DNA of 61,619 nucleotides, counting the filler, from Basidioascus undulatus (taxonomy: Eukaryota): the NCBI GenBank assembly GCA_000826855.1. It is 12 parts of 12 records of this genome, joined end to end, with 100 filler letters (N's around TTAATTAATTAA, not from the genome) between each part and the next. Parts side by side here need not be neighbours in the genome. Positions count along the whole stretch, not along the records: positions 48,150 to 51,453 come from JTLS01002462.1; 11 more parts are not named here. One strand, written 5' to 3'. The position numbers and the translations under genes are program-made. The notes below the pieces were generated by a model, which did not search any database, had not been told where the DNA came from, and worked only from the letters and a program-made list of their open reading frames with translations. Below are positions 4,301 to 59,956 of this stretch, one piece after another (the stretch's first letter is position 1; every line of letters begins with the position of its first letter).

Positions 4301-5639
4301 ACCACAAAGCAGCCCAACGCACTCTCCAATAGAATTGACAAAGTTCGTCCCGCCCGTGCCACCAGAGATGTCGCCCGCGCCCTGGCGCTTTCGGAGGCGC
4401 ACGCCCTCCTCAGCGCGGTCGAGGAGGTCGGGCGAGGTGGGTGCGAAGCGGACGAATGGCCCGGCGGAGGGGTCGCGCGGGTCGAACTTGGAGGATGCGG
4501 GGGAGCCGAGGAAGGCGTCGAGCGCGGAGAGGAGCGGCGGGAGGGGGCGGAGGGCGTAGAAGGAGGGGTCGCGCTGCGAGGGGGGGGGTGAGTGAGATGG
4601 ATGTGGGGGGAGGATGTGGAAGATGTGGGGAGAAAGGAGAAGAGAAGCGTACGAGGGCAGGGTTGATGGAGGCGTTGGTGTTGAAGGGTTCTTGCTCGGC
4701 TGAGCAGCCGGTGCGGAAGGGGTGGTCGGAGTGGGAGTGCGAGCCCTCCGCGGGCTCGACGTCCCCGTCGCGGAAGATGACAAGCTTGGAGGAGGGGGCG
4801 TCGAGGTCAGGGGAGGGGTCGGAAGCGTGCTTAGACGCAAGGTAGGACGGGAGCGTCTTGATGTGGTGTCGCTCCCCCCGGAGGGTGAAGACGCCCTCGA
4901 AGAGGGGCAGGGTGGACGTGGACACGCCGTCGTCGTGCAGCATGATGCGAGCCCATCCTAGTACACTGAAAGTTGGAGAAAAGGGGTTCAGACGTTCTGC
5001 CTTCCCAAGAAGCGAACCAAAGGACAGCACTCACCCTTCCTCCTCCTCCGGTACACCCTCCCAGCTCGCCGTCCTTACGATCCGCGCCGTGTCCTCCGCA
5101 AGCCTGCGCTCCGTCTGGCGCGTATGCACGACCACGCCCGTATACGCGCGGTAGTGCTCCCTCTGGAGCTTCTCCGAGCGCACGACCCTCCCACCGCGGT
5201 GGTAGTTGACCCTCGCGCGCGGGTGCAGGAGCTCGTCGTTCGGCTCGAGGTGGAGGTGGACCTGCTCGCCCGTGTCGGGGAGCTGGAGGCTGATGCGAAT
5301 CGAGTCGGAGTGGAGGACGCTGGGCGAGTAGAACGTGTGGGTGGAGTTGGCGAGGTGTCGCGGTTGCAGGGGCGGAGTGCGAGGGAGGACGGAGATCGCC
5401 ATGTCGGTTGGGTGGAGGAGGCGCTTGAGCGGGCCGGGCCGGTGGCTATGTGCTGTGGGGTAGCATAACGGGCAGGTTGGATGGATTTATGAGTGGGATG
5501 GACAGGGGTGGAAATAGAACCGCCACGCACCTGCTGCGGGATGTGGAGAGCAGAGGAGGGCGAGGAGGACGAGGAGCGCGCCGGCCCAGGCTGTTACTGG
5601 CCATGACGGCGGGCCGGGGCGGGGTATGGAAGGGCGCAT
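1397..5639 (-). CDS. ADAM-family zinc metalloprotease/disintegrin (fungal ADM-B-like), multi-exon, type I membrane protein
   Basis: ATG 5639, signal peptide AWAGALLVLLALLC. Prodomain VHLHLEPNDELLHP. Spliced zinc motif HEIGHNFGAIHDC. Disintegrin CGNGIIEGDEECD...CDVEEKCTGNSGTCPTD, Cys-rich region, TM segment IVGIIVLIILY, Pro-rich tail, stop at 1397. Confidence 0.93.
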
Positions 5640-24148: not shown

Positions 24149-24248
24149 NNNNNNNNNNNNNNNNNNNNNNNNNNNNNNNNNNNNNNNNNNNNTTAATTAA
24201 TTAANNNNNNNNNNNNNNNNNNNNNNNNNNNNNNNNNNNNNNNNNNNN
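24149..24248. other. artificial contig linker. Identical linkers at 27569-27668, 30988-31087, 34404-34503, 37820-37919, 41232-41331, 44643-44742, 48050-48149, 51454-51553, 54857-54956, 58241-58340
   Basis: 100-nt N run with a central TTAATTAATTAA six-frame stop. Intervening contigs fall in size from 3320 to 3284 nt. Confidence 0.99.
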
Positions 24249-33246: not shown

Positions 33247-34403
33247 AGTGCGTCTTCCCTTCCCTTTCCCTCCCTCCGGCAGACTGAACCCCCCTTCGCC
33301 CGCTAGTGCTGGCCGAGGTCCTCCTCCTGCTCTCCGGGCACCCTTCCTCTCTCTTCCTCCCCTCGCCCGCGCCTCCCTCGCCCCCAAAAACCCTCTTACT
33401 CTCCCCACACTTCCCGCACCTCCACCCCGGCGAGCGCGCCACGCTCAACGCGCTCGCGCACCTCGCGTTCCTGTACGCCCGCGCGCGGGGGTTCGCACAG
33501 CGCGTGCTGGCGCGGTCGCGCGCGGGGGTGTTGCAGCCTTCGAAGACGCGGGGAGCGAGAGAGGGGGATGAGTATACGGTGGCTGTGGCGGCGGAGGTCT
33601 TGCGCCAGCTAAGGGCGTGGGAGGAGCTGGTGGTCCGGACGGAGGCGCGCGTGCTGAAGCGGGATGTGGAGCTCGTCGCGGAGGGGGCGGTCGTACCGCT
33701 CTCGAGCCTCCTCGCGATCTTCAGCGGGTGGGAAGCGCCCCTCACCGCGCTTAACGCGCTCATCGACAAGCTCATCCTCGGCCCTTCCCCCTCCGCACCG
33801 ACCGACACCCCACCACCGGACCCGGACAAGGACCTCCCCCCGCCCTGGCCGCCGGGGCCGCTCATCGACCTCCTCTCCTCGCACGCTGCCACAGGCGTCG
33901 CGTCCACCTCCGCGCTCTTCACAGCCCTCTCGCACGCTGCGCAGGCCCTCCTAGCCCGACACCTCACCGCGCTCCTCACCTCCCCGTCGCCCACCTCTCC
34001 TCTCCTTCTCCCCTCTTCCCCAACCACCTCCTCCTCCGCCTCCACCTCCCCCGAGCTGAACCCCATCCACCTCCCTTCCTCCATCCCCCCCCAAACGCGC
34101 GCCTCAATCCTCTACGTCGCCCGTGCGCTCCTGACGCTCCGTGCCGGGGGGCGGAGCCTCCCGCGGGAGATGACGCGCCGGCATGGGGAGGTGCTGCGCG
34201 CGCTGGGGGGGAGAGTGGAGGACCGAATTGGGCTGGCGAAGGCAGTTGAGGGAGTGAGGGAGGAGGTCGGGCAGTGGGTGTGGGAAAACGTCTTGACGCT
34301 GGGGATGGTCCGCGAGGCTTTCACGGGACTGTGGGTCGCCCCCTCTTCCCCCTTTCCTTCCCCCTCCTTCTTCCTTCTCCCTTTCGTATTAATCTCTCAG
34401 ATA
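33247..34403 (+). CDS. gamma-tubulin complex component (GCP4/Gfh1-like, Spc97/Spc98 family), 5' part
   Basis: MLAEVLLLLSGHPSSLF...HPGERATLNAL...VVPLSSLLAIFSGWEAPL. Start codon assembled as A|TG across intron 33248-33306. Confidence 0.85.
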
Positions 34404-34503
34404 NNNNNNNNNNNNNNNNNNNNNNNNNNNNNNNNNNNNNNNNNNNNTTAATTAATTAANNNNNNNNNNNNNNNNNNNNNNNNNNNNNNNNNNNNNNNNN
34501 NNN

Positions 34504-46375: not shown

Positions 46376-48149
46376 CGTGTCGTAGTCGTCGTTTGCTGTG
46401 GATGCAAGTTCCAGCGAACACGTTCAAAGGCAAGATGACGTACCTATCAGCGGGATCCAGGTCAACCGTAACACAAGCGGCGGGAGTGGGCTTTTCCCCC
46501 ATCAGCAACCGGCGCTATCTCCCTTTCATCACCTACAGTTTTAAAAAAAAAGTTTAAAAGCCAACATGTAATCTTCCCGCATGTATCGAGGGCGGGGGAG
46601 ACAGTGACCGCGACATTGGGAGGAGAGGACCTGCTGTTGTGCTTGCTCGCTCAAGACTGCTGGCATAGTTCCACCAGCTGGATTTGAGACTCATGATGTC
46701 GATGAATTCACGCCAGAGACGTCGTTTAAACGAATCTTGGAAGAATTATGACTCCAATATGTCGGCTGTGAGTAAGGTCGCTCTCGGAGTGGTTTCTTTC
46801 GCAGCCGGTAAGAGCCGCCCAGTTTCTAAGCTGTAGTACACTCGGGCCAGAGCAGAGAGTCACCAGATGTCACAGGATGTTCCCATGTGCAATGAAAAGT
46901 CTATACCAAACAAACCTTAATGAGTGCGCACGCGGGCTAGAAACATAGCAGAGCTCAGCTAGCTCTGCTGCAGCGCTCTGCTCGAATTGGACACTTTGGC
47001 TGGCTTCCAGCGTTGCTCCATCGCCTCTCAGGTGCTCCGGTAAATTGATTCAACTCATAAGGACAAGAGTTTTTCAATGGCGTCGCTTTAACTAGACAAG
47101 CAAGGGGGCAACGCTCGGCGCTCTTCTCGAGTCCACCAGCCGTGGAAAGTCGCCGTCAGAATGGGTACAAGGTTATCACCCCCGGGGATACAATGAAACA
47201 CTAACTATTGAGGAAACTTCATTAGAACTCTCACTAGCAGTGGTAGCAGTGGCAGCGCCTCCGTGCAGTGCAGGCAACTTGGTCCCACGAGGCTGCAATA
47301 TAGCCAACGCCTTCGGGTTGAAGGCTTGAACCGCCTCACTAATACTTCATTGCAGTAGAAATTCGTTTGAAATGGTCTCGTTCATGTAAGTAGTGCAGAA
47401 AAGCTCTCGCCAACCGCACCTTAGCTACCGCGACTTGCTTGCTGGAAGCTCGTCTGTGACGGCCTCACAGGTCTCCCTAGGCCATGATGAACCACATTAC
47501 CACCATTCGTGCACAGTTTAGATTTAAGTAGGATCTTAGAGCAACCGTAAACAATATCTGGCCTCGTGGTGAGCTTGAAGTTAACAGCGACGATTCGTGC
47601 GTCTTCAAATCTTCCTTCGCAGTCCTTCTCCAGCTTCCACCGGGCAATGCAGCCCGCCTTCGTCTCTGCCTTTCAGACTTCCCTGTCTTTAACCTCATCC
47701 TTTCTTACCTGCGCAACTTTCCTCTCCTCTACCTTTGCATTCACCTGCTGCTGTTCGCGTACGCCTCTTTGAGGCTCCTTGGGGTACCGTCACTCTGTGT
47801 TCTCGAGCTCGCGCAGCCCGCATGAAGTGCACATATAGGCCTGCGGAATGGATATTTACCGATTTACATGGGCGTACCTGTCATCGCGTTCAAGCCTACC
47901 AAGTTCACCGGCACAGTCTTGCACGGTTCTGCTGCAGCGAACTGCTCTCTGCTCCGGGGCAATTTGGTCTTTGCTCTACCACATGCCGAACATGGTCAGA
48001 CGACTAATATTAATGCTCTTTCTGACCAAGTCTTATTTTGACCCCCCCCNNNNNNNNNNNNNNNNNNNNNNNNNNNNNNNNNNNNNNNNNNNNTTAATTA
48101 ATTAANNNNNNNNNNNNNNNNNNNNNNNNNNNNNNNNNNNNNNNNNNNN

Positions 48150-48330
48150 CGGTGTACAGGTCCTTCATCCGCCCGCTCCTCGAGTATGCGGGCCCCATCG
48201 CATGGCTATGGGCAGGCAAGGTGCGGGAGCGCCAGCCCATGCTCGAGGACGCTCACAGGGTCTGGGTAGAAGCCGTGACATGGGTTATCGCAGGTCGGAC
48301 CGGACACAGGAAGCCAAGATCGCAGCGGCG
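48150..48330 (+). mobile_element. non-LTR (LINE-type) retrotransposon fragment, RT thumb region
   Basis: VYRSFIRPLLEYAGPI resembles the conserved LYxxxIRPxLEY motif C-terminal to LINE RT. Confidence 0.65.
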
Positions 48331-49764
48331 GTAACGTCTCTTTGCGGAGTACTGAGTTGCTATCAGATGCTGACGGCGGCCATCGTTTCTCGAGCGTTTC
48401 AGTGTGTACGTGCTTCCTGCCGAGTACTGACCTACAATTAGACGCTGACACTGGCCATCGCCTCTTGATCATCGCAGATCGTACGTGCCTCCCCGCCGAG
48501 TACTGACCTGCAATCAGAAGCTGACAGTGGCCATCGCCTCTTCATTATCTTAGCACGTACATGTCTCCCTGCCGCGTTCTAACCTGCAGTCAGATGCTGA
48601 CGCTGGCCATCACCTCTTGATCATCTCAGGTCGTACGTGTCTCTTTGCGAGTACTGACCTGCAATCAGATGCTGATAGTGGCCACTGCTTCTTGATCATC
48701 TCAGACTGTACGTGTTTCCCTGACGAGTACTGACCTGCAATCAGATGCTGACAATGGACATCCCCTCTTCATCATCTCAGGACGTACGTCTCTCCCTGCC
48801 GAGTACTGACCTGCAATCGGATGCATACGGCGGCCATTGATTCTTGATCATATCAGCTCGTATGTGTATCCCTGCCGAGTACTGAGCTGAAATCAGATGC
48901 TAACGGCGGCCATCGCCTCTTGATCATCTCAGAATGTACGTGTCTCTCTGCCTAGTACGGAGCGCAATCAGACGCTAACGGCGGTCACCTCTTGATCATC
49001 TCAGAATGTACGTGTCTCTCTGCCTAGTACGGAGCGCAATCAGACGCTGACATTCGCCGTCGCCTCTTGATCATCTTAGGCTGTACGTGTCTCCCTGACG
49101 AGCACTGACCTGCCATCAGCTGCTGACCGTGGCCGTCGCCTCTTGATCACCTCAGGAGGTATGTGTCTCCTTGCCGAGTACTTGACCTGCAATCAGATGC
49201 TGACGCCGGCCATAGCTTCTTGATTATCTCAGTTCGTACGTGTCTCCCTGTCGAGTACTGACCTACAATCAGAAGCTGACAGTAGCCATCGCCTTTGATA
49301 ATCTTAGGAGGTACGTGTCTCTCTCCCGAGTACTGACCTGGAGTCAGATGCTGACACTGGCCATCACCTCTTAATCATCTTAGGGTGTACGTGTCTCCCT
49401 GCCGACTCCTGACCTGCAATTAGACGCTGACACTGGACATCGCCTCGAGATCATCTCAGGTCGTACGTGCCTCCCCGCCGAGTACTGACCTGCAATCAGA
49501 AGCTGACAGTGGCCATCGCCCCTTGATCATCTTAGGGTGTACGTATCTCCCTTCCGATTACTGCTATTCAATCAAATGCTGACGGCGGCTATCGCTTCTT
49601 GATCATCTTAGCTCGTACGTGTCTTCCCGCCGAGTACTGAGCTGCAGTCAGATGCTGAACGCTGGCCATGACCTTCTGATATCTCAGCAGGTATGTGTCT
49701 CCCTGCCGCGTACTGAATTACAATGAGCTGCTGATGAACATAGCTACTACGTCCATGATCTCAA
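48331..49764 (+). repeat. tandem array of 19 intron-like units (~73 nt) separated by 18 variable 3-nt spacers (putative single-codon exons)
   Basis: Consensus GTACGTGTCTCCCTGCCGAGTACTGACCTGCAATCAGATGCTGAC-N4-GGCCATCGCCTCTTGATCATCTYAG plus NNN; period about 76 nt. Confidence 0.95.
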
Positions 49765-50848
49765 ACGGCCCTATGGCAGTGAACCGTTCCCGACAAAGCC
49801 CGTCGACATTTTTGTGCGAGTGCCAAGAACGCGTTGCAATAACTCTCACCTTTCGCCAAGCCAACTTCTTCTGTCACACTCCTTTCCGTTATAGTCCCTT
49901 TGTAATGCATCTTCACTGCCACTCGACTATACAGCCCCTTTTGGTAGCCTATAAAGAATGCCCCCTTGACCCCCCTTGTTCGCCATTCATTCTTGCAGTT
50001 CTACTTCTGCCCGAGTCGTCGCTCTCGCGCTTGCCTCGCAATACACTGAGTCGACCCCGATATCCCAGGATAAAATATGTTCAAAGGAAATGGAAGAACT
50101 GAGATAAAATGGGGAAAACAAGAGAACGCGTGAACACATTGACCAGTGGTGAGCTGCTGAGTGTAAGTTTACACTGACAAAACCAGGAGAGCGCGCGAGA
50201 GAAGCAGAAGAAGGGACAGAAATAAAAGATAGAGAGAGGGAAGTATGGGAATGGCACCTCTCCAGGATACAACAACTCCTGGTTAAGGAGAGACTTGCTG
50301 GCTAGATCCTCACCGTCTCTCAACTGCCTCAATGTCTTCGCAAAAGCCCCAGGCGGAAGAGGTGGCGCATGCATGTAAGATGCTTACATAGCGACTGGCG
50401 GAGCGCGCGAAGCGACAGCTACTATGGCAATCACCACCAATCAGAATTCATACGCTACTACGTGGCACATAGTGTAACGGTGCTGGAGTTCGATAGGTGG
50501 TTATTTGGCGCTTCAATGTTTATAGCTAGTTGTTTTGGCGCTCGAGGCCCTCTAGGGGCCACGAGACTTGTCGGGCAAACGTATAATCGATCGCGCGGGC
50601 GCCACTCCTGGTTCGCCACGACTTTCATGGCCGATAGCTAGACCTCGATAAATTGCATCGAAGTCTTTGTGTGTGCGAAAGTTGTCTGAGGCAACAGCCT
50701 TTCACCTAGGTTAAACCCCAGAGGTCTCTTTGTGCTTACGATTTCTTCCAAACCACCCACTATCTCCTCGTTGGCCTTCGCAAGCTGACTTTGGAATTTT
50801 CTGCTCCCACTTCTCCGCACCCCAGCTACGGCATTCTGCACCATGGCT

Positions 50849-51453
50849 CTAGTCATGTACGGTGTCGATGGCTCGACCGACCAAATCGCGATCAATGACT
50901 TTTTCAGCGACACCTTTGCCCTCGACCCATCTTACGCTGCAAAGTGGGCGGGAGACTGCAGGCGGAAGTACTCGCCCACGCGACCGGGACATGGGTTTTG
51001 TCTGAAGGGAGATGGTCCGTCTCGAGGGGGAGTAGAGTTCATCAGATGCATTAAAATACGACAAAACGGCTGTATTCGTCAACAAGGAGGGAAGCGTGAA
51101 GGATCAGACCCTGAATGTGGCCGCGCAGGAGCGAATACTGGCCTCTACATGGAGGTACCGGACTGGACTTCTGCCTTTCGAGTCCAGAGAGGCGTACTGG
51201 GGCAGGGACTGGCCCCTCCCTGCGCCAAGATCGAGGATCACTCGCGAACCACCCCGACCCGCTGCCGCTGAGTATATGACGCGCTTAAGCTCAGCGCACA
51301 CGGCCTCCGCTCTACCAATGGCGAGGGGGTCACCTTCCTCGCCCGCTGCGGACTGGAGCACCGCAAGGCAGGCGGCTGCATCGTTCGCAAGCGTCTTGTC
51401 AGGCCTATGGAACACCTCGAGCACCTCTACGCTGGGAAAGCCACTCCCACCCC
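50849..51453 (-). pseudogene. degraded viral-type mRNA capping enzyme / SAM methyltransferase fragment (putative endogenous viral element)
   Basis: RPDKTLAN followed by VILDLGAGRGQSL and YLHVE. Intronless; in-frame TGA at 51104-51106. Confidence 0.55.
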
Positions 51454-54818: not shown

Positions 54819-54956
54819 GTACCTTTTCCCCCTTCTATCCCCCCTCCCTCCCCACCNNNNNNNNNNNNNNNNNNNNNNNNNNNNNNNNNNNNNNNNNNNN
54901 TTAATTAATTAANNNNNNNNNNNNNNNNNNNNNNNNNNNNNNNNNNNNNNNNNNNN

Positions 54957-57900
54957 CCCCAGCCTCAGCCTCCTCCACCGCGGCGGCGGGCCCACCGACG
55001 AGCCCCTGCTGGAACTGTTGGAGCGGCTGCTGCGCCGCGGCGGCAGCATGGATGCGGTCGGCGGAGATACCCGCGAGCTGCAGGCGCTCGAGGTCCTGGG
55101 CGAGGATCGCGGTCTGCTGCTGGCCCGTGATGCCCGCAGCGGCGGCGGCGAGCGCGGCCGCGTCCTGTGGCGAGCGGTTCTTGAGGATCGACGTTGGCTC
55201 GATGTCTTTCAGGTCGATGCCGAGGCTCTTGCAGAGGACTTCGATCTCGAACTTGAGGTTGAGCTTGAGCTCGGCGAACTGATAGAGCTCGACGAGGAGG
55301 CGGAGGACGGCCATGAGCCACGGGTTGGGCGGGTGGAAGACGCGGCTGTGCGAGCACTGCTCGAGGACCTTGCACACGAACGGGATCGCGACGATGAGCC
55401 GGTTCGCGTCGTAGCCCTGGACGAGGAGCTCCTTGAACGCGATGTTACGGAACTTGATCGGCTTGTCCCGCGCGAGCGTGAGCCCGCCTAGCCACGAGCC
55501 GAGGTTCTTGAGGTGCGCGCGCTCGCCCGACGACGACACCGTCTTGTCGTCGTTGAGGAGCTGGTCGATCTTGGCGAACGTCTCGCGGAGGACGTGGCGC
55601 AGGAGGCCCTTCTGCCCGATGACGTCCAGGAACTGCATGTACAGCCCGTGGTTGTTCGGCTCCATCGCGACGCGCTCGAGCACGAGGTAGTGCGCGAACC
55701 AGCGCGCGTGCTCGAGCCTGAACCGCTCCCGCATCTCCTCTGTCTTCGCCTCGATGTTGCTCGGCGCGAGGTTGTTGATGATGAACAAGATCCGGTCCGA
55801 CGTCTCCTCGTCCGGCACGTCGTACTCCTCCGACTCGCCCTCCGGCAGCGGGTCCACGTTGACGGCGGTGAACGCGCGCCTCGGGCGGGCGGCGATCTCC
55901 GCGGCGGTCGCGAGCGCCTGAGCCTGCGCCTGCGCCTGGGCGGACGCGTCCGCCGAGTGCTCGAGCGCGAGGCGCGCGTACTCGGCGAGGTCGGGCAGCG
56001 TCTCGACGAGGTGCGGGATGGCGAGGAGTGCCTGGCAGACCTGCGGCCACTCGGGTAGGCGGCGCTGGAACTGCGAGAGCGCCTGCACGCCGAACCGGAA
56101 CCGGTTCGATTCGGGCACAGAGCGGAGCGCGGTGAGAACGTAGCGGATCGCGATCCCGAGCGGGATGAAGTCGATGATGTGGTACTGGATCAGCGACCCG
56201 AACAGGACGCCCGTCATCGCCAGCTCCGCGGGCGGGTAGGTTTCGTAGTGCCGGTACTCCTCGAAGCTGCAGAAGCGCCACCGCCACCCCGCTCGTCAGT
56301 ACCATGTCCTATATCCCTTTACATCCCAAGCTCAATGACGGAAGAGAAGGAAGTAACGCACAGCGTGTGGATCATCGCCGCAAATAGCTCATGGTCGCGC
56401 GGGTTGGACGAGGCCTTCGCGCGCTGGAGGAAGACGATGACGTCCTCGACGCGGATGTCGCCCGAGTACATGCGGTGGTAGTAGTCCTCGACCTCGCGGT
56501 CCATCTCAGGCGAGAACGACATGACGCTCAGGCCCGGCTCCTGGTCCGTGTGCGGCATGAGGTTCATCAGCCGCGGCCAGTACTGCAGGCACAGGTTGCG
56601 GATCTCCTTGTAGTAGTCGATGTCCTCCTGCACGAGCGGGAGGAGCTCGGCGCTGACACACACACACATCACTTTCGTCAGTTTCCGACAACAGTCACAA
56701 CCACGTGCGCAGGAAGCCAGCACTCACTTTGCTCGCAGCGCCCGCAAGAAGATCGCGACGGTCTGGACGTTGAGCGGCATGGTCGTCTGCTCCTGGCCGG
56801 TCTCGAGGCGCGTCGCCTCCGACTTGGCCTTGCCATCGAGGAACTCGAGCGCATCGCGGACGAACGCCGTGCCGTGCGCGTTGATCCGGTCCTGAAGCCA
56901 CTTGTCGAGGTTGAGGTATTCGCGGCGGGACGCGAGCGCGGCCATGTCGAGTGCGAAAGCGACGGGGCGGACGTCGAGGACTTGGTCGAGGATCTGTGAA
57001 ACGTTCGCAACGTCCCAACCCACAGTTCATTGAGCCCAGCGTGCAGGTAGAGCATCGACGAAGGAAAGACGCACCTTCAAGTCCTGCGCGACATCCAGGA
57101 TCCGCGTGACGTTCATGTTGCTGTCCTCGTAGAACTTGCGGAACGCGGCGGTGACGAATGAGCGGTCGACCTGCCAGAGGCGGAGGAAGACGAGCTGGTG
57201 GCTCGGGCTGCCGGCGAGGAAGAGTGCGAGCAGGCGCGAGGTGAGGTCGAGGTGGAAGGGGGACCAGGGTTTCTGCGTCCCTCCCCGCCACGTTAGTAAA
57301 CCCTTTCTTCCGGTTTGTGCAGATCGTGAAAATAACGACGAACCTGAATCTGTATGAGCCCCATGAGGACGAGCTCGCCGTTCGTCCTCCCGGCGTTCTC
57401 GAGGAGTTCACGCGCGACAGCATCGACCTCCTCGCCGCCGTGTTCCTCAAGGCGTACGACAGTCTCGAGCACCTCCAGGTTGTTCCACGTCGAGCCCTGG
57501 ACGGACGCCGCCATGGCCTTGATCGTCGGGCTGGCGGTGGCGATCTGCTCGACGGTGACGACGCGGCCGCCGGGGAGGGCGGCGAAGGAGAACTGCTCGG
57601 GCGCGAGCGCGAGGAGGGACGCGAGCGCGTTGATCTGCAGCGTCGTGTTGACCCACGTGCCGAGCAGGCCTGAGACGGCCGGCTGCGCCTGCGTGGCGCT
57701 TGGCGGCGGCGCGGGCGCGGAGAGGAGGAGGCTGACGAGGATGGAGGGCGGCGGCGGGGGCGTCGTGGCGGAGTCGAAGGCGCGGATGAGGGCGGCAAAG
57801 GAGGGGGTGGGGCTCTGTCGAGCGTGCGAGCGGTCAGTGACGTTCGAAAAACTGTAGAGAAAGACGGAAAAAGGACGCACATAGGAGGCAATGACACGAC

Positions 57901-58371: not shown

Positions 58372-59956
58372 ATGCACCACGTCCGCACGCTCCCCTCCTC
58401 CGCCTTCCCTCACGCCTTCAGCGCGTCCTCCACGCATGCTGGGATCAAGAAGCACGCTGGCTCGCTCGACCTGGGTCTCCTCGTGTCGACCCACCCGGGG
58501 CCGTGCAGCGCCGCCGCGTCCTTCACGCGCAACGTCTTCAAGGCCGCGCCCGTCGTCGTCTCCTCCTCCGTCCTCGCCTCCAGCGCGGGGCACGCCCGCG
58601 CAGTGATCATCAACTCGGGTTGCGCGAATGCCGTCACGGGTGCTCAGGGCCTCGCAGACGCGCAAGCCATGTCCGACGCGGTGGAGAGCGTCCTGCCCCC
58701 CCAGCCCGGGCCGTCAGGCACCCTCGTCCTCTCCACCGGCGTGATCGGGCAGGCGCTCCCGATCCAGAACATCCTCTCCTCCGTTCCCAGCCTCACATCC
58801 ACCCTCGCCTCCACCCCCGCCGCGTGGCTCGCCCTCGCAAAAGCATTCATGACGACCGACACGTTTCCCAAGCTCCGCGCGCGGGAAGTCACCCTCCCCT
58901 CGGGGCGCACGATCCGCATCGCCGGGATCGACAAGGGCGCGGGGATGATCCACCCCAACATGGGTCCCCCGGCCGCCCCGCACGCGACGCTGCTTGGCGT
59001 CCTGGCGACGGACGCGCCTGTCGCGCCGGAGCGGCTGCAGGAGGCCCTGAACTGGGCGGTCGACCGCAGCTTCAATGCGATCAGCGTGGATGGGGACATG
59101 AGCACGAACGACACGGTACTGGCGCTCGCGAATGGCGCGGAGGGCGGGAAGCCGCTGGAGGGGGAGGACTACGAGGCGTTCAGGGAGGAGTTGACCAAGT
59201 TTGCGGTGGAGCTCGCACAGCTTGTTGTCAGGGATGGCGAGGGCGCGACCAAGTTCGTTACTGTTACTGTTGAGGTGCGTATCCCTCTCCATGTTTATTT
59301 CCCCCTTCTCGCTTCCTTCACTCTCATCCGACCCGAACTCATCCCCTCCCCCCACACAGAACGCCCCCTCCTTCCCCATCGCCCAAACCGTCGCACGCAC
59401 AATTGCCACCTCCTCCCTCGTCAAAACCGCTCTCTACGGACAAGACGCTAACTGGGGTCGGATGTCCGTCTTCTCCCCTTCCCCCTTCTCCCCTCTCCTT
59501 CCTAACCTCCCTCTCCCCCCACCAAGTCTCTGCGCAGTCGGCTACGCCCCGCTCGCCCCCCCAAACCCGATCAACCCCACCGCCGTGTCCGTCTCTTTCC
59601 GCCCCTCCGACGGCTCGCCGGACCTCGCGCTCCTCGTGAACGGCGAGCCGGAACAGGTGGACGAGGAGCGCGCGAGCGCGATCCTGGCGCACGAGGATTT
59701 GGAGATCCGCGTGGATCTGGGTGTGAAGGGAGGCGAGGAGGCACGGTATTGGACGTGCGATTTCTCGCATGAATGTGAGTTCGGGATGGAAGATGCGCAG
59801 GGAGAGGGAGAGGCTGATTAGTGGGAGAGGGGGTGGGACAGATGTTACTATTAATGGGAGGTACGCTAGAGGTGGTTTCTTGGAGCGCCTGAGGGTTTGC
59901 GTAAGGACGAGCTCCTGACTTCCCTTCCCATTTACCATCATAGCTACCGCTCCTGA
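58372..59956 (+). CDS. ARG7: ornithine acetyltransferase ArgJ/Arg7 (true start may be upstream of the contig edge)
   Basis: [67 protein letters not shown]-terminal YRS*. Confidence 0.97.

Follow-up and report, generated by a model that had tools for sequence, protein, structure and literature searches.

Organization of the Locus

The window, meaning the whole stretch of 61,619 nucleotides from Basidioascus undulatus that was analyzed, is from position 24149 onward a run of contigs of about 3.3 kb joined by N spacers. One of them (48150-51453; G000:C1626) carries on its own a tandem array which extends from 48336 to 49779 and is built of 19 intron units and 18 intervening three-base exons. Junctions of the form YAG-NNN-GTAY occur 18 times between 48400 and 49693, versus four times in the rest of the window. 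The features are as follows.

48150..48335, plus strand: LINE-like fragment from the interior of a multi-copy non-LTR retroelement, joined straight onto the array
48336..48402, plus strand: intron unit 1, lacking a donor, with branch site and CAG acceptor and an additional AG 21 nt past the branch
48403..49690, plus strand: 18 three-base exons and 17 introns of 69-74 nt, recognized by junction pattern and splice signals
48403, 48478, 48554, 48630, 48705, 48781, 48857, 48933 and 49005, plus strand: starts of three-base exons 1-9
49080, 49156, 49233, 49308, 49384, 49460, 49536, 49612 and 49688, plus strand: starts of three-base exons 10-18
48899..49048, plus strand: one-period tandem duplication (about 48899-48976 and 48974-49048), with AAT carried twice and 61 nt exact
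48479..48538, plus strand: 60-nt exact block, copy 1, comprising the end of an ATC codon and most of unit 3
49461..49520, plus strand: 60-nt exact block, copy 2, comprising the end of a GTC codon and most of unit 16
49214..49232, plus strand: cryptic acceptor of intron 12 (AG at 49214-49215), adding 17 nt to the exon; its use is deduced from the start and length of a contig
49448..49459, plus strand: cryptic acceptor of intron 15 (AG at 49448-49449), adding 10 nt to the exon and visible in a joined contig
49691..49779, plus strand: last intron (unit 19), 89 nt with a divergent 3′ half; the splice joint falls at 49777-49780
49780..49918, plus strand: last exon, opening with TGA, a phase-0 stop; the 3′ flank is covered by X3 contigs

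Units 2-18 start with a GTAY donor and end with YAG, and in 16 out of 17 a branch motif lies 26-29 nt before the acceptor; unit 7 has lost the usual motif and has one 47 nt before its YAG. Across the array, the splice signals are intact, with GT at 18/18 donors and YAG at 19/19 acceptors. Translation of the triplets meets no stop in two of the three frames. Phase 0 has been adopted because the complete paralogue described below supports it, and in this phase the triplets comprise 13 codon types for 13 amino acids, without any stop.

Most units within 48406-49687 also have a second branch-like motif and an AG near position 37, an AG which unit 7 has lost together with its normal branch site. 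In a comparison with background introns, the branch-to-acceptor distance is constant at 28-29 nt in both arrays of this genome and varies from 15 to 37 nt in 17 unverified background candidates. A covariance-model search against Rfam returned no match at E≤1 for 48100-50200, and none of the four ORFs downstream of the array on its contig matched a Pfam family. Behind the array, a small repeat (49913-50023) has an 81% match to G000:C2518 and a TATA-like motif.

Other small contigs of the window bear pieces of housekeeping genes, namely a gamma-tubulin complex component (33306-34448), CNOT1 (54904-56217), which an atlas search placed in eukaryotes, and ArgJ (58372-59448). The ArgJ gene is 60-67% identical to its best 120 matches; the named ones among these belong to several classes of basidiomycetes. 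The host is a basidiomycete without a close annotated relative.

A LINE Fragment Abuts the Array

The segment 48150-48335 has 12 matches in the same genome among those listed, and the other copies diverge where the array begins; a longer copy of the element contains the Pfam domain RVT_1 (E 8.5e-14). The junction at 48335/48336 is bridged by DNA contigs covering 48271-48508 in two DNA runs, X1 and X2. On this bridging contig, position 48329 is T in both runs and C in the assembly, probably a consensus error within the repeat. Since the LINE is cut internally and a short sequence is shared at the joint, the fusion of LINE and array suggests a deletion.

Neither a start codon nor a signal exon was found on the array contig (48150-51453), and a search of the genome with the 27-residue first exon of the paralogue retrieved only itself. 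The window copy may be a relic of recent origin or else a gene with its first exon outside the contig. Two copies of the LINE fragment (L010 and L013) adjoin telomere-like CCTAA-type repeats with 20 and 24 motif counts, respectively; a subtelomeric location of the element, and perhaps of the array, is therefore possible.

Splicing of the Array

An 81-nt contig from a further run, X3, joins 49236 to 49777 with 24 letters in between. The spliced model derived from the window coordinates is identical to letters 5-81 of this contig, in the order 17 nt of the intron 12 tail, exons 12-14, 10 nt of the intron 15 tail, exons 15-18 and the last exon opening with TGA; its length is also compatible with exons 10 and 11 ahead of the intron 12 tail. 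The contig has a depth of 2 and a shorter side of 23 nt, and was placed at 90% likeness. X3 stems from the same sample as X1, covers 9 of 30 bins and was automatically guessed to be DNA; as X1 and X2 lack such a joint, we infer from this one contig that X3 is RNA.

The proposal of the first-pass annotation that the triplets are exons is borne out by this molecule, in which six of them are spliced in order. It does not read as a plain string of triplets, cryptic acceptors having been used in introns 12 and 15. The two AGs concerned lie 12 and 19 nt past the branch and are present in those units alone, while AGs at +3 to +9 were passed over. Together the two additions amount to 27 nt, so that the frame is kept. 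No exon is skipped in the joined contig; a second X3 contig retains intron 19. Introns with cryptic AGs number 3/18 in the window and 0/26 in the paralogue (p 0.06), a weak sign of decay.

A Complete Paralogue in the Same Genome

A complete paralogue is found on G000:C1645 (L006 801-2872), where phase 0 runs from ATG to stop. It is built of an ATG-initiated exon of 27 codons, 26 introns, 25 one-codon exons and a last stretch of two codons and TAA, which amounts to 54 codons, or 162 coding nucleotides, 75 of them from one-codon exons and all in phase 0. Its first exon has a hydrophobic core with a hydropathy peak of 3.46 and is predicted to be a signal-peptide-like leader, from which the product would be secreted. 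Past this leader, the predicted product has about 30 residues, of which two are cysteines and 25 come from one-codon exons. A protein search with exon 1 extended into intron 1 (60 residues; lengths 33-105) retrieved no homologue. Among nine ORFs near the paralogue, three have a Pfam match, sugar transporter and P450 among them, and none is of NLR type. Four weak splice sites are also present (a GTTAGT and a GTGCGT donor, an AAG acceptor and an AATGAC branch), which could favor in-frame skipping.

Paralogue exons 1-4 and 8 reappear 17 units further on, and this offset has the lowest mean intron distance (7.9 vs. 10.0). Repeated 3-mers (p 0.002) and a repeated 4-mer (p 0.011) are likewise in excess. 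From these patterns, the paralogue is best read as having grown by multi-unit blocks, including the copy of a four-codon block.

Two remnants, truncated forms of the two types of array, complete the family. The first (C1347; L005 2259-2674) has five to six units and breaks off on either side within unrelated sequence; the second (C326; L016, about 4990-5060, minus strand) consists of one unit and the 3′ flank of the paralogue. In C1347, a 3′ half like that of unit 10 precedes the same GCT codon, behind which stands a 5′ half resembling that of unit 17; intron halves and codons have therefore been reassorted between arrays. The genome thus holds three tandem arrays and one single-unit remnant, and no dispersed copies were found. 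Alternative donor and acceptor patterns gave unclustered, control-level counts in this genome (57, 94, and 817 matches); for the pattern set with 817 matches, 100 were listed, and this search for further arrays was non-exhaustive.

Codons Diverge More Than Introns

Within the window array, mean diversity is 0.20 for intron columns (0.22 without splice signals) and 0.73, 0.74, and 0.66 for the three triplet positions, a level of 0.66 being reached by only 1 of the 73 intron columns. Variation is almost absent from the donor, branch and acceptor columns and is greatest in the triplets. With triplets at 0.71 and introns at 0.20 overall, divergence of the triplets does not match the intron background rate, and the earlier claim that introns homogenize while triplets diversify stands as a pattern, the process behind it being deduced. 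CpG decay was considered as a source of changes and explains little, accounting for 9/133 of them.

When an amino acid recurs, it is encoded by the same codon in 5/5 pairs in the window (p 0.06) and in 28/28 pairs in the paralogue (p 2e-5, against the codon usage of three window ORFs), and the reused paralogue codons include ones that are rare in this genome. Under a point-mutation model, the lack of synonymous codon types is also unexpected (13/13 in the window, p 0.003; 10/10 in the paralogue, p 0.005). Junctions with an identical codon have closer flanks (p 0.012 in the window and 0.006 in the paralogue). Codon reuse and the closer flanks at same-codon junctions indicate that codons were copied and not reinvented. 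Upstream and downstream flank distances across the codon are uncorrelated (r -0.11 in the window, -0.13 in the paralogue).

Duplication History Within the Array

The two longest exact repeats of the array measure 61 nt (offset 72) and 60 nt (offset 982), the next one being 28 nt. The 61-nt repeat (48916-48976 and 48988-49048) crosses the AAT codon and confirms that units 48936 and 49008 share a private variant and both follow AAT. Upstream, it can be followed to the branch site (about 48899/48974), past a single substitution and a 3-nt indel. Intron 9 is a chimera whose 5′ half is that of intron 10 (0 differences) and whose 3′ half is like that of intron 8, which is, from its sequence, the trace expected of a one-period unequal crossover that would have added one codon. 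The N-N pair had been attributed to duplication of a single unit; one period was indeed duplicated, but the copied piece is the 3′ half of an intron, the codon and the 5′ half of the next intron. When columns were shuffled, a run as long as the within-unit part of this block (≥41) arose in 62/2000 trials.

The 60-nt repeat (48479-48538 and 49461-49520) links units 48481 and 49463 (units 3 and 16) at an offset of 13 units, in agreement with the reported identity over more than 50 nt, and takes in the last two bases of the enclosed ATC and GTC triplets, whose Ile/Val difference is confirmed. The introns of these units differ at 3/73 columns, versus 14.4 for the mean pair; by column shuffling, a run ≥58 was obtained in 0/2000 trials and a distance ≤3 in 11/2000. 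The preceding units, 48406 and 49387 (units 2 and 15), do share the 20-mer noted earlier, but such a match is ordinary, exact runs of at least 20 nt being found in 16/136 pairs. At nine differences, they are nearer than average, about 5-6/136 pairs being as close, and they have one private marker in common, while at least three derived states are common to 12/136 unit pairs; they do not form a supported clade. The supposed copy of a two-unit block is thus weakly supported. Its mismatches are uneven, with five in the first 44 nt and none in the next 60 (Fisher p 0.012), a distribution that a recent conversion, perhaps atop an older block copy, would fit better than a single event. Either way, no codon was added.

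In a phylogeny of the units, from which units 1 and 19 were left out, only 1 of 14 inner branches (units 9 and 10) is strongly supported; the tree recovers that pair, leaves the other 13 without strong support and therefore cannot order the duplication events. The view that the peptide grows codon by codon was overstated, as adjacent identical codons number one in the window, where 0.6 are expected, and none in the paralogue, where 2.2 are expected.

Arrays in Metagenomes

Scanning metagenomes for runs of three 3-nt exons turned up at least 129 stretches, of which 80 were fetched. Of the fetched loci, 33 with varied triplets were selected visually and parsed. The other 47, which were duplicates, simple repeats or short chains, were set aside; several of them contain stop triplets (L057, L081, L082, L086, L090, L096, L105, L108, and L121). 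Pooled stop triplets number 1/788 against 52 expected, a deficit inflated by the selection of loci by eye. In the parsed loci and the two arrays of this genome, 803/826 exons are of 3 nt, the parser having been seeded on this length. Thirty metagenome arrays have at least eight three-nucleotide exons (745 exons in total), and with the two arrays described here they make up 22 families. Given at least 129 stretches in the scan, and long arrays in 30 of the 80 fetched, the one-codon-exon layout is probably common and unannotated.

In 82 disjoint closest-flank pairs from the 22 families, flanks differ by 0.037 per site and codons by 0.47. The codons of 17 of these pairs are identical, about twice the 10.6% expected at random, and those of 36 differ at two or three bases; only 3/65 codon differences are synonymous, compared with 28% expected for single changes. 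Synonymous variants across 32 arrays number 59 versus 127 expected. Linkage between flank and codon reaches p<0.05 in only 10/31 testable arrays, and pooled adjacent identical codons are slightly in excess (84/735 vs. 71 expected, p 0.045). Point mutation after duplication was rejected, as it cannot yield near-identical flanks with such divergent codons. Such a pattern can result when introns are homogenized over short tracts while codons are reassorted and amino-acid change is favored by selection. As codons are largely uncoupled from near-identical flanks in the 22 families, shuffling and homogenization explain more than codon-by-codon growth does.

Flanking ORFs of the metagenome arrays have a Pfam match in 7/90 cases at E≤0.001, including a STAND Goodbye domain (L066, with the array upstream of it), ankyrin (L101 and L109) and a kinase (L103); from the Goodbye and ankyrin neighbors, it follows that some metagenome arrays adjoin NLR-type genes, as in the truffle case discussed below. 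Six long arrays (L062, L095, L048, L116, L066, and L065) have 36-72 consecutive introns, and in many of them the codon set is strongly charged (E, D, R), with A or T as the final base.

Proposed Mechanism and Alternatives

We consider it likely that the array makes up the coding portion of a recombining one-codon-per-exon gene from a secreted-peptide family, of which the window copy is probably a recent relic. Each codon would be its own exon between copies of one spliceosomal intron of about 73 nt, and the family product would be small secreted peptides. Misaligned recombination would add or remove whole periods, as may have happened with N-N in the window and with the four-codon block in the paralogue, homogenize intron halves over short tracts and redistribute the existing codon set among positions, while selection would preserve splice signals and favor amino-acid changes. 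The window copy would have lost, or been parted from, its 5′ exon by fusion with the LINE fragment, with low-level transcription and splicing persisting. The peptide itself may serve as a variable factor in the interaction with other organisms. A more tentative extension, which we regard as rather doubtful, is a diversifier at two levels, in which DNA recombination would swap codon cassettes and RNA skipping, together with paired cryptic acceptors, would generate a peptide library.

The relic status is the part of this proposal most directly challenged by a live window copy, with its signal exon past the contig edge and the LINE fragment within a long first intron. After unit 1 all donors and acceptors are present without any stop triplet, the copy is transcribed and spliced, its two cryptic acceptors compensate, and the contig begins inside the LINE; this reading is nevertheless somewhat unlikely, as the internally cut LINE and the short shared sequence at the joint suggest a deletion, neither a second signal exon nor further units were found in the genome, and two other loci of the family (C1347 and C326) are truncated too. 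It is improbable that the array is a non-coding minisatellite grown from an intron-plus-3-nt unit, in which splicing would be a by-product and the triplets would have no coding function. Although the array resembles a 76-nt satellite, is expressed at a low level, has remnants among repeats and has no protein homologue that was found, splice columns are near invariant where triplets are most variable, phase 0 of the paralogue is open from an ATG through a hydrophobic leader to a stop, and synonymous variants are depleted across the 32 arrays.

Introner-like elements are similar introns dispersed in unrelated genes. Insertion of such a mobile intron at every third base of an existing coding sequence would account for the near identity of the introns and the weak flank-codon linkage in many arrays, but we hold it to be very improbable, given that the 61-nt exact block runs across a codon, permuted with respect to the intron ends, that copies occur in tandem arrays alone with none dispersed in this genome, and that repeated residues reuse identical, rare codons. 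As for assembly artefacts, the assembly is short and fragmented and the contig measures 3.3 kb, yet the array is reproduced by X1 and X2 contigs, which have 0 differences from it and, at both repeats, break and double in depth, and units differ on average at 14/73 columns. That the shared blocks arose by misassembly is thus hardly credible, and the shared variants of the first-pass annotation are genuine. X1 and X2 possibly share strain or data with the assembly, to which they are identical in the array, and they therefore provide no strain comparison.

Relation to Known Systems

Arrays of codon-sized exons have already been published. In the nank (NACHT-ankyrin) NLR family of Tuber melanosporum, tens of codon-sized 3-bp exons are described, for which alternative splicing has been reported and protein diversification proposed (Iotti et al., 2012, as relayed in the text available from PMC4986451, PMC10197012, and PMC13449251). 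The arrays described here are alike in their many consecutive 3-bp exons, which number 18 for the window array and 25 for the paralogue. While the truffle genes encode intracellular NLRs of an ascomycete, the window array is from a basidiomycete and has no NACHT, ankyrin or HET domain downstream; its frame reaches a stop straight past the array. The complete paralogue has 54 codons in all and starts with a signal-peptide-like leader. The reports of alternative splicing concern the truffle genes; in the one joined contig seen here, cryptic acceptors are used and no exon is skipped, and one other contig keeps intron 19.

The micro-exon genes (MEGs) of Schistosoma mansoni combine, in the available part of PMC4015677, a 5′ signal peptide, symmetric micro-exons, skipping variants and a small secreted product. 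As far as this source describes them, the paralogue is alike in its small symmetric exons, which make up 75/162 of its coding nucleotides, and may be alike in its signal-peptide-like leader, which the window copy lacks, and its putative small secreted product. It differs in belonging to a fungus, without homology, in its internal exons being all exactly 3 nt and in its introns being tandem copies. The high-internal-conservation repeats of Podospora NLRs are, in the accessible portion of PMC13449251, near-identical tandem units with few hypervariable codons, evolving in concert by unequal crossover or conversion; according to the same portion, the conserved part is coding there (WD40 and similar), whereas here it is intron and only the variable codon is coding. 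In Coprinopsis, 27 exons of 3 nt are spread over 26 genes and are thus mostly single, at least in the part of bioRxiv 2024.05.10.593147 available.

The locus works like the nank arrays, the MEGs and the Podospora repeats, yet it belongs to none of them, having neither an NLR domain nor flatworm homology. What appears to be new, judged on sequence, is a stand-alone secreted-peptide form in a fungus. In the literature searched, without most subscription papers or preprint supplements, neither a stand-alone secreted fungal form nor the duplication history of such an array was found.

One-codon-exon genes go undetected by gene callers as well as read mappers and are mistaken for satellites. Their arrays are a natural test of the spliceosome on runs of 3-nt exons, far too short for exon definition, and they allow coding selection to be gauged against an intron clock within one gene. 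If the secreted form holds true, it would represent a compact route to fungal peptide diversity, parallel to the micro-exon genes of schistosomes.
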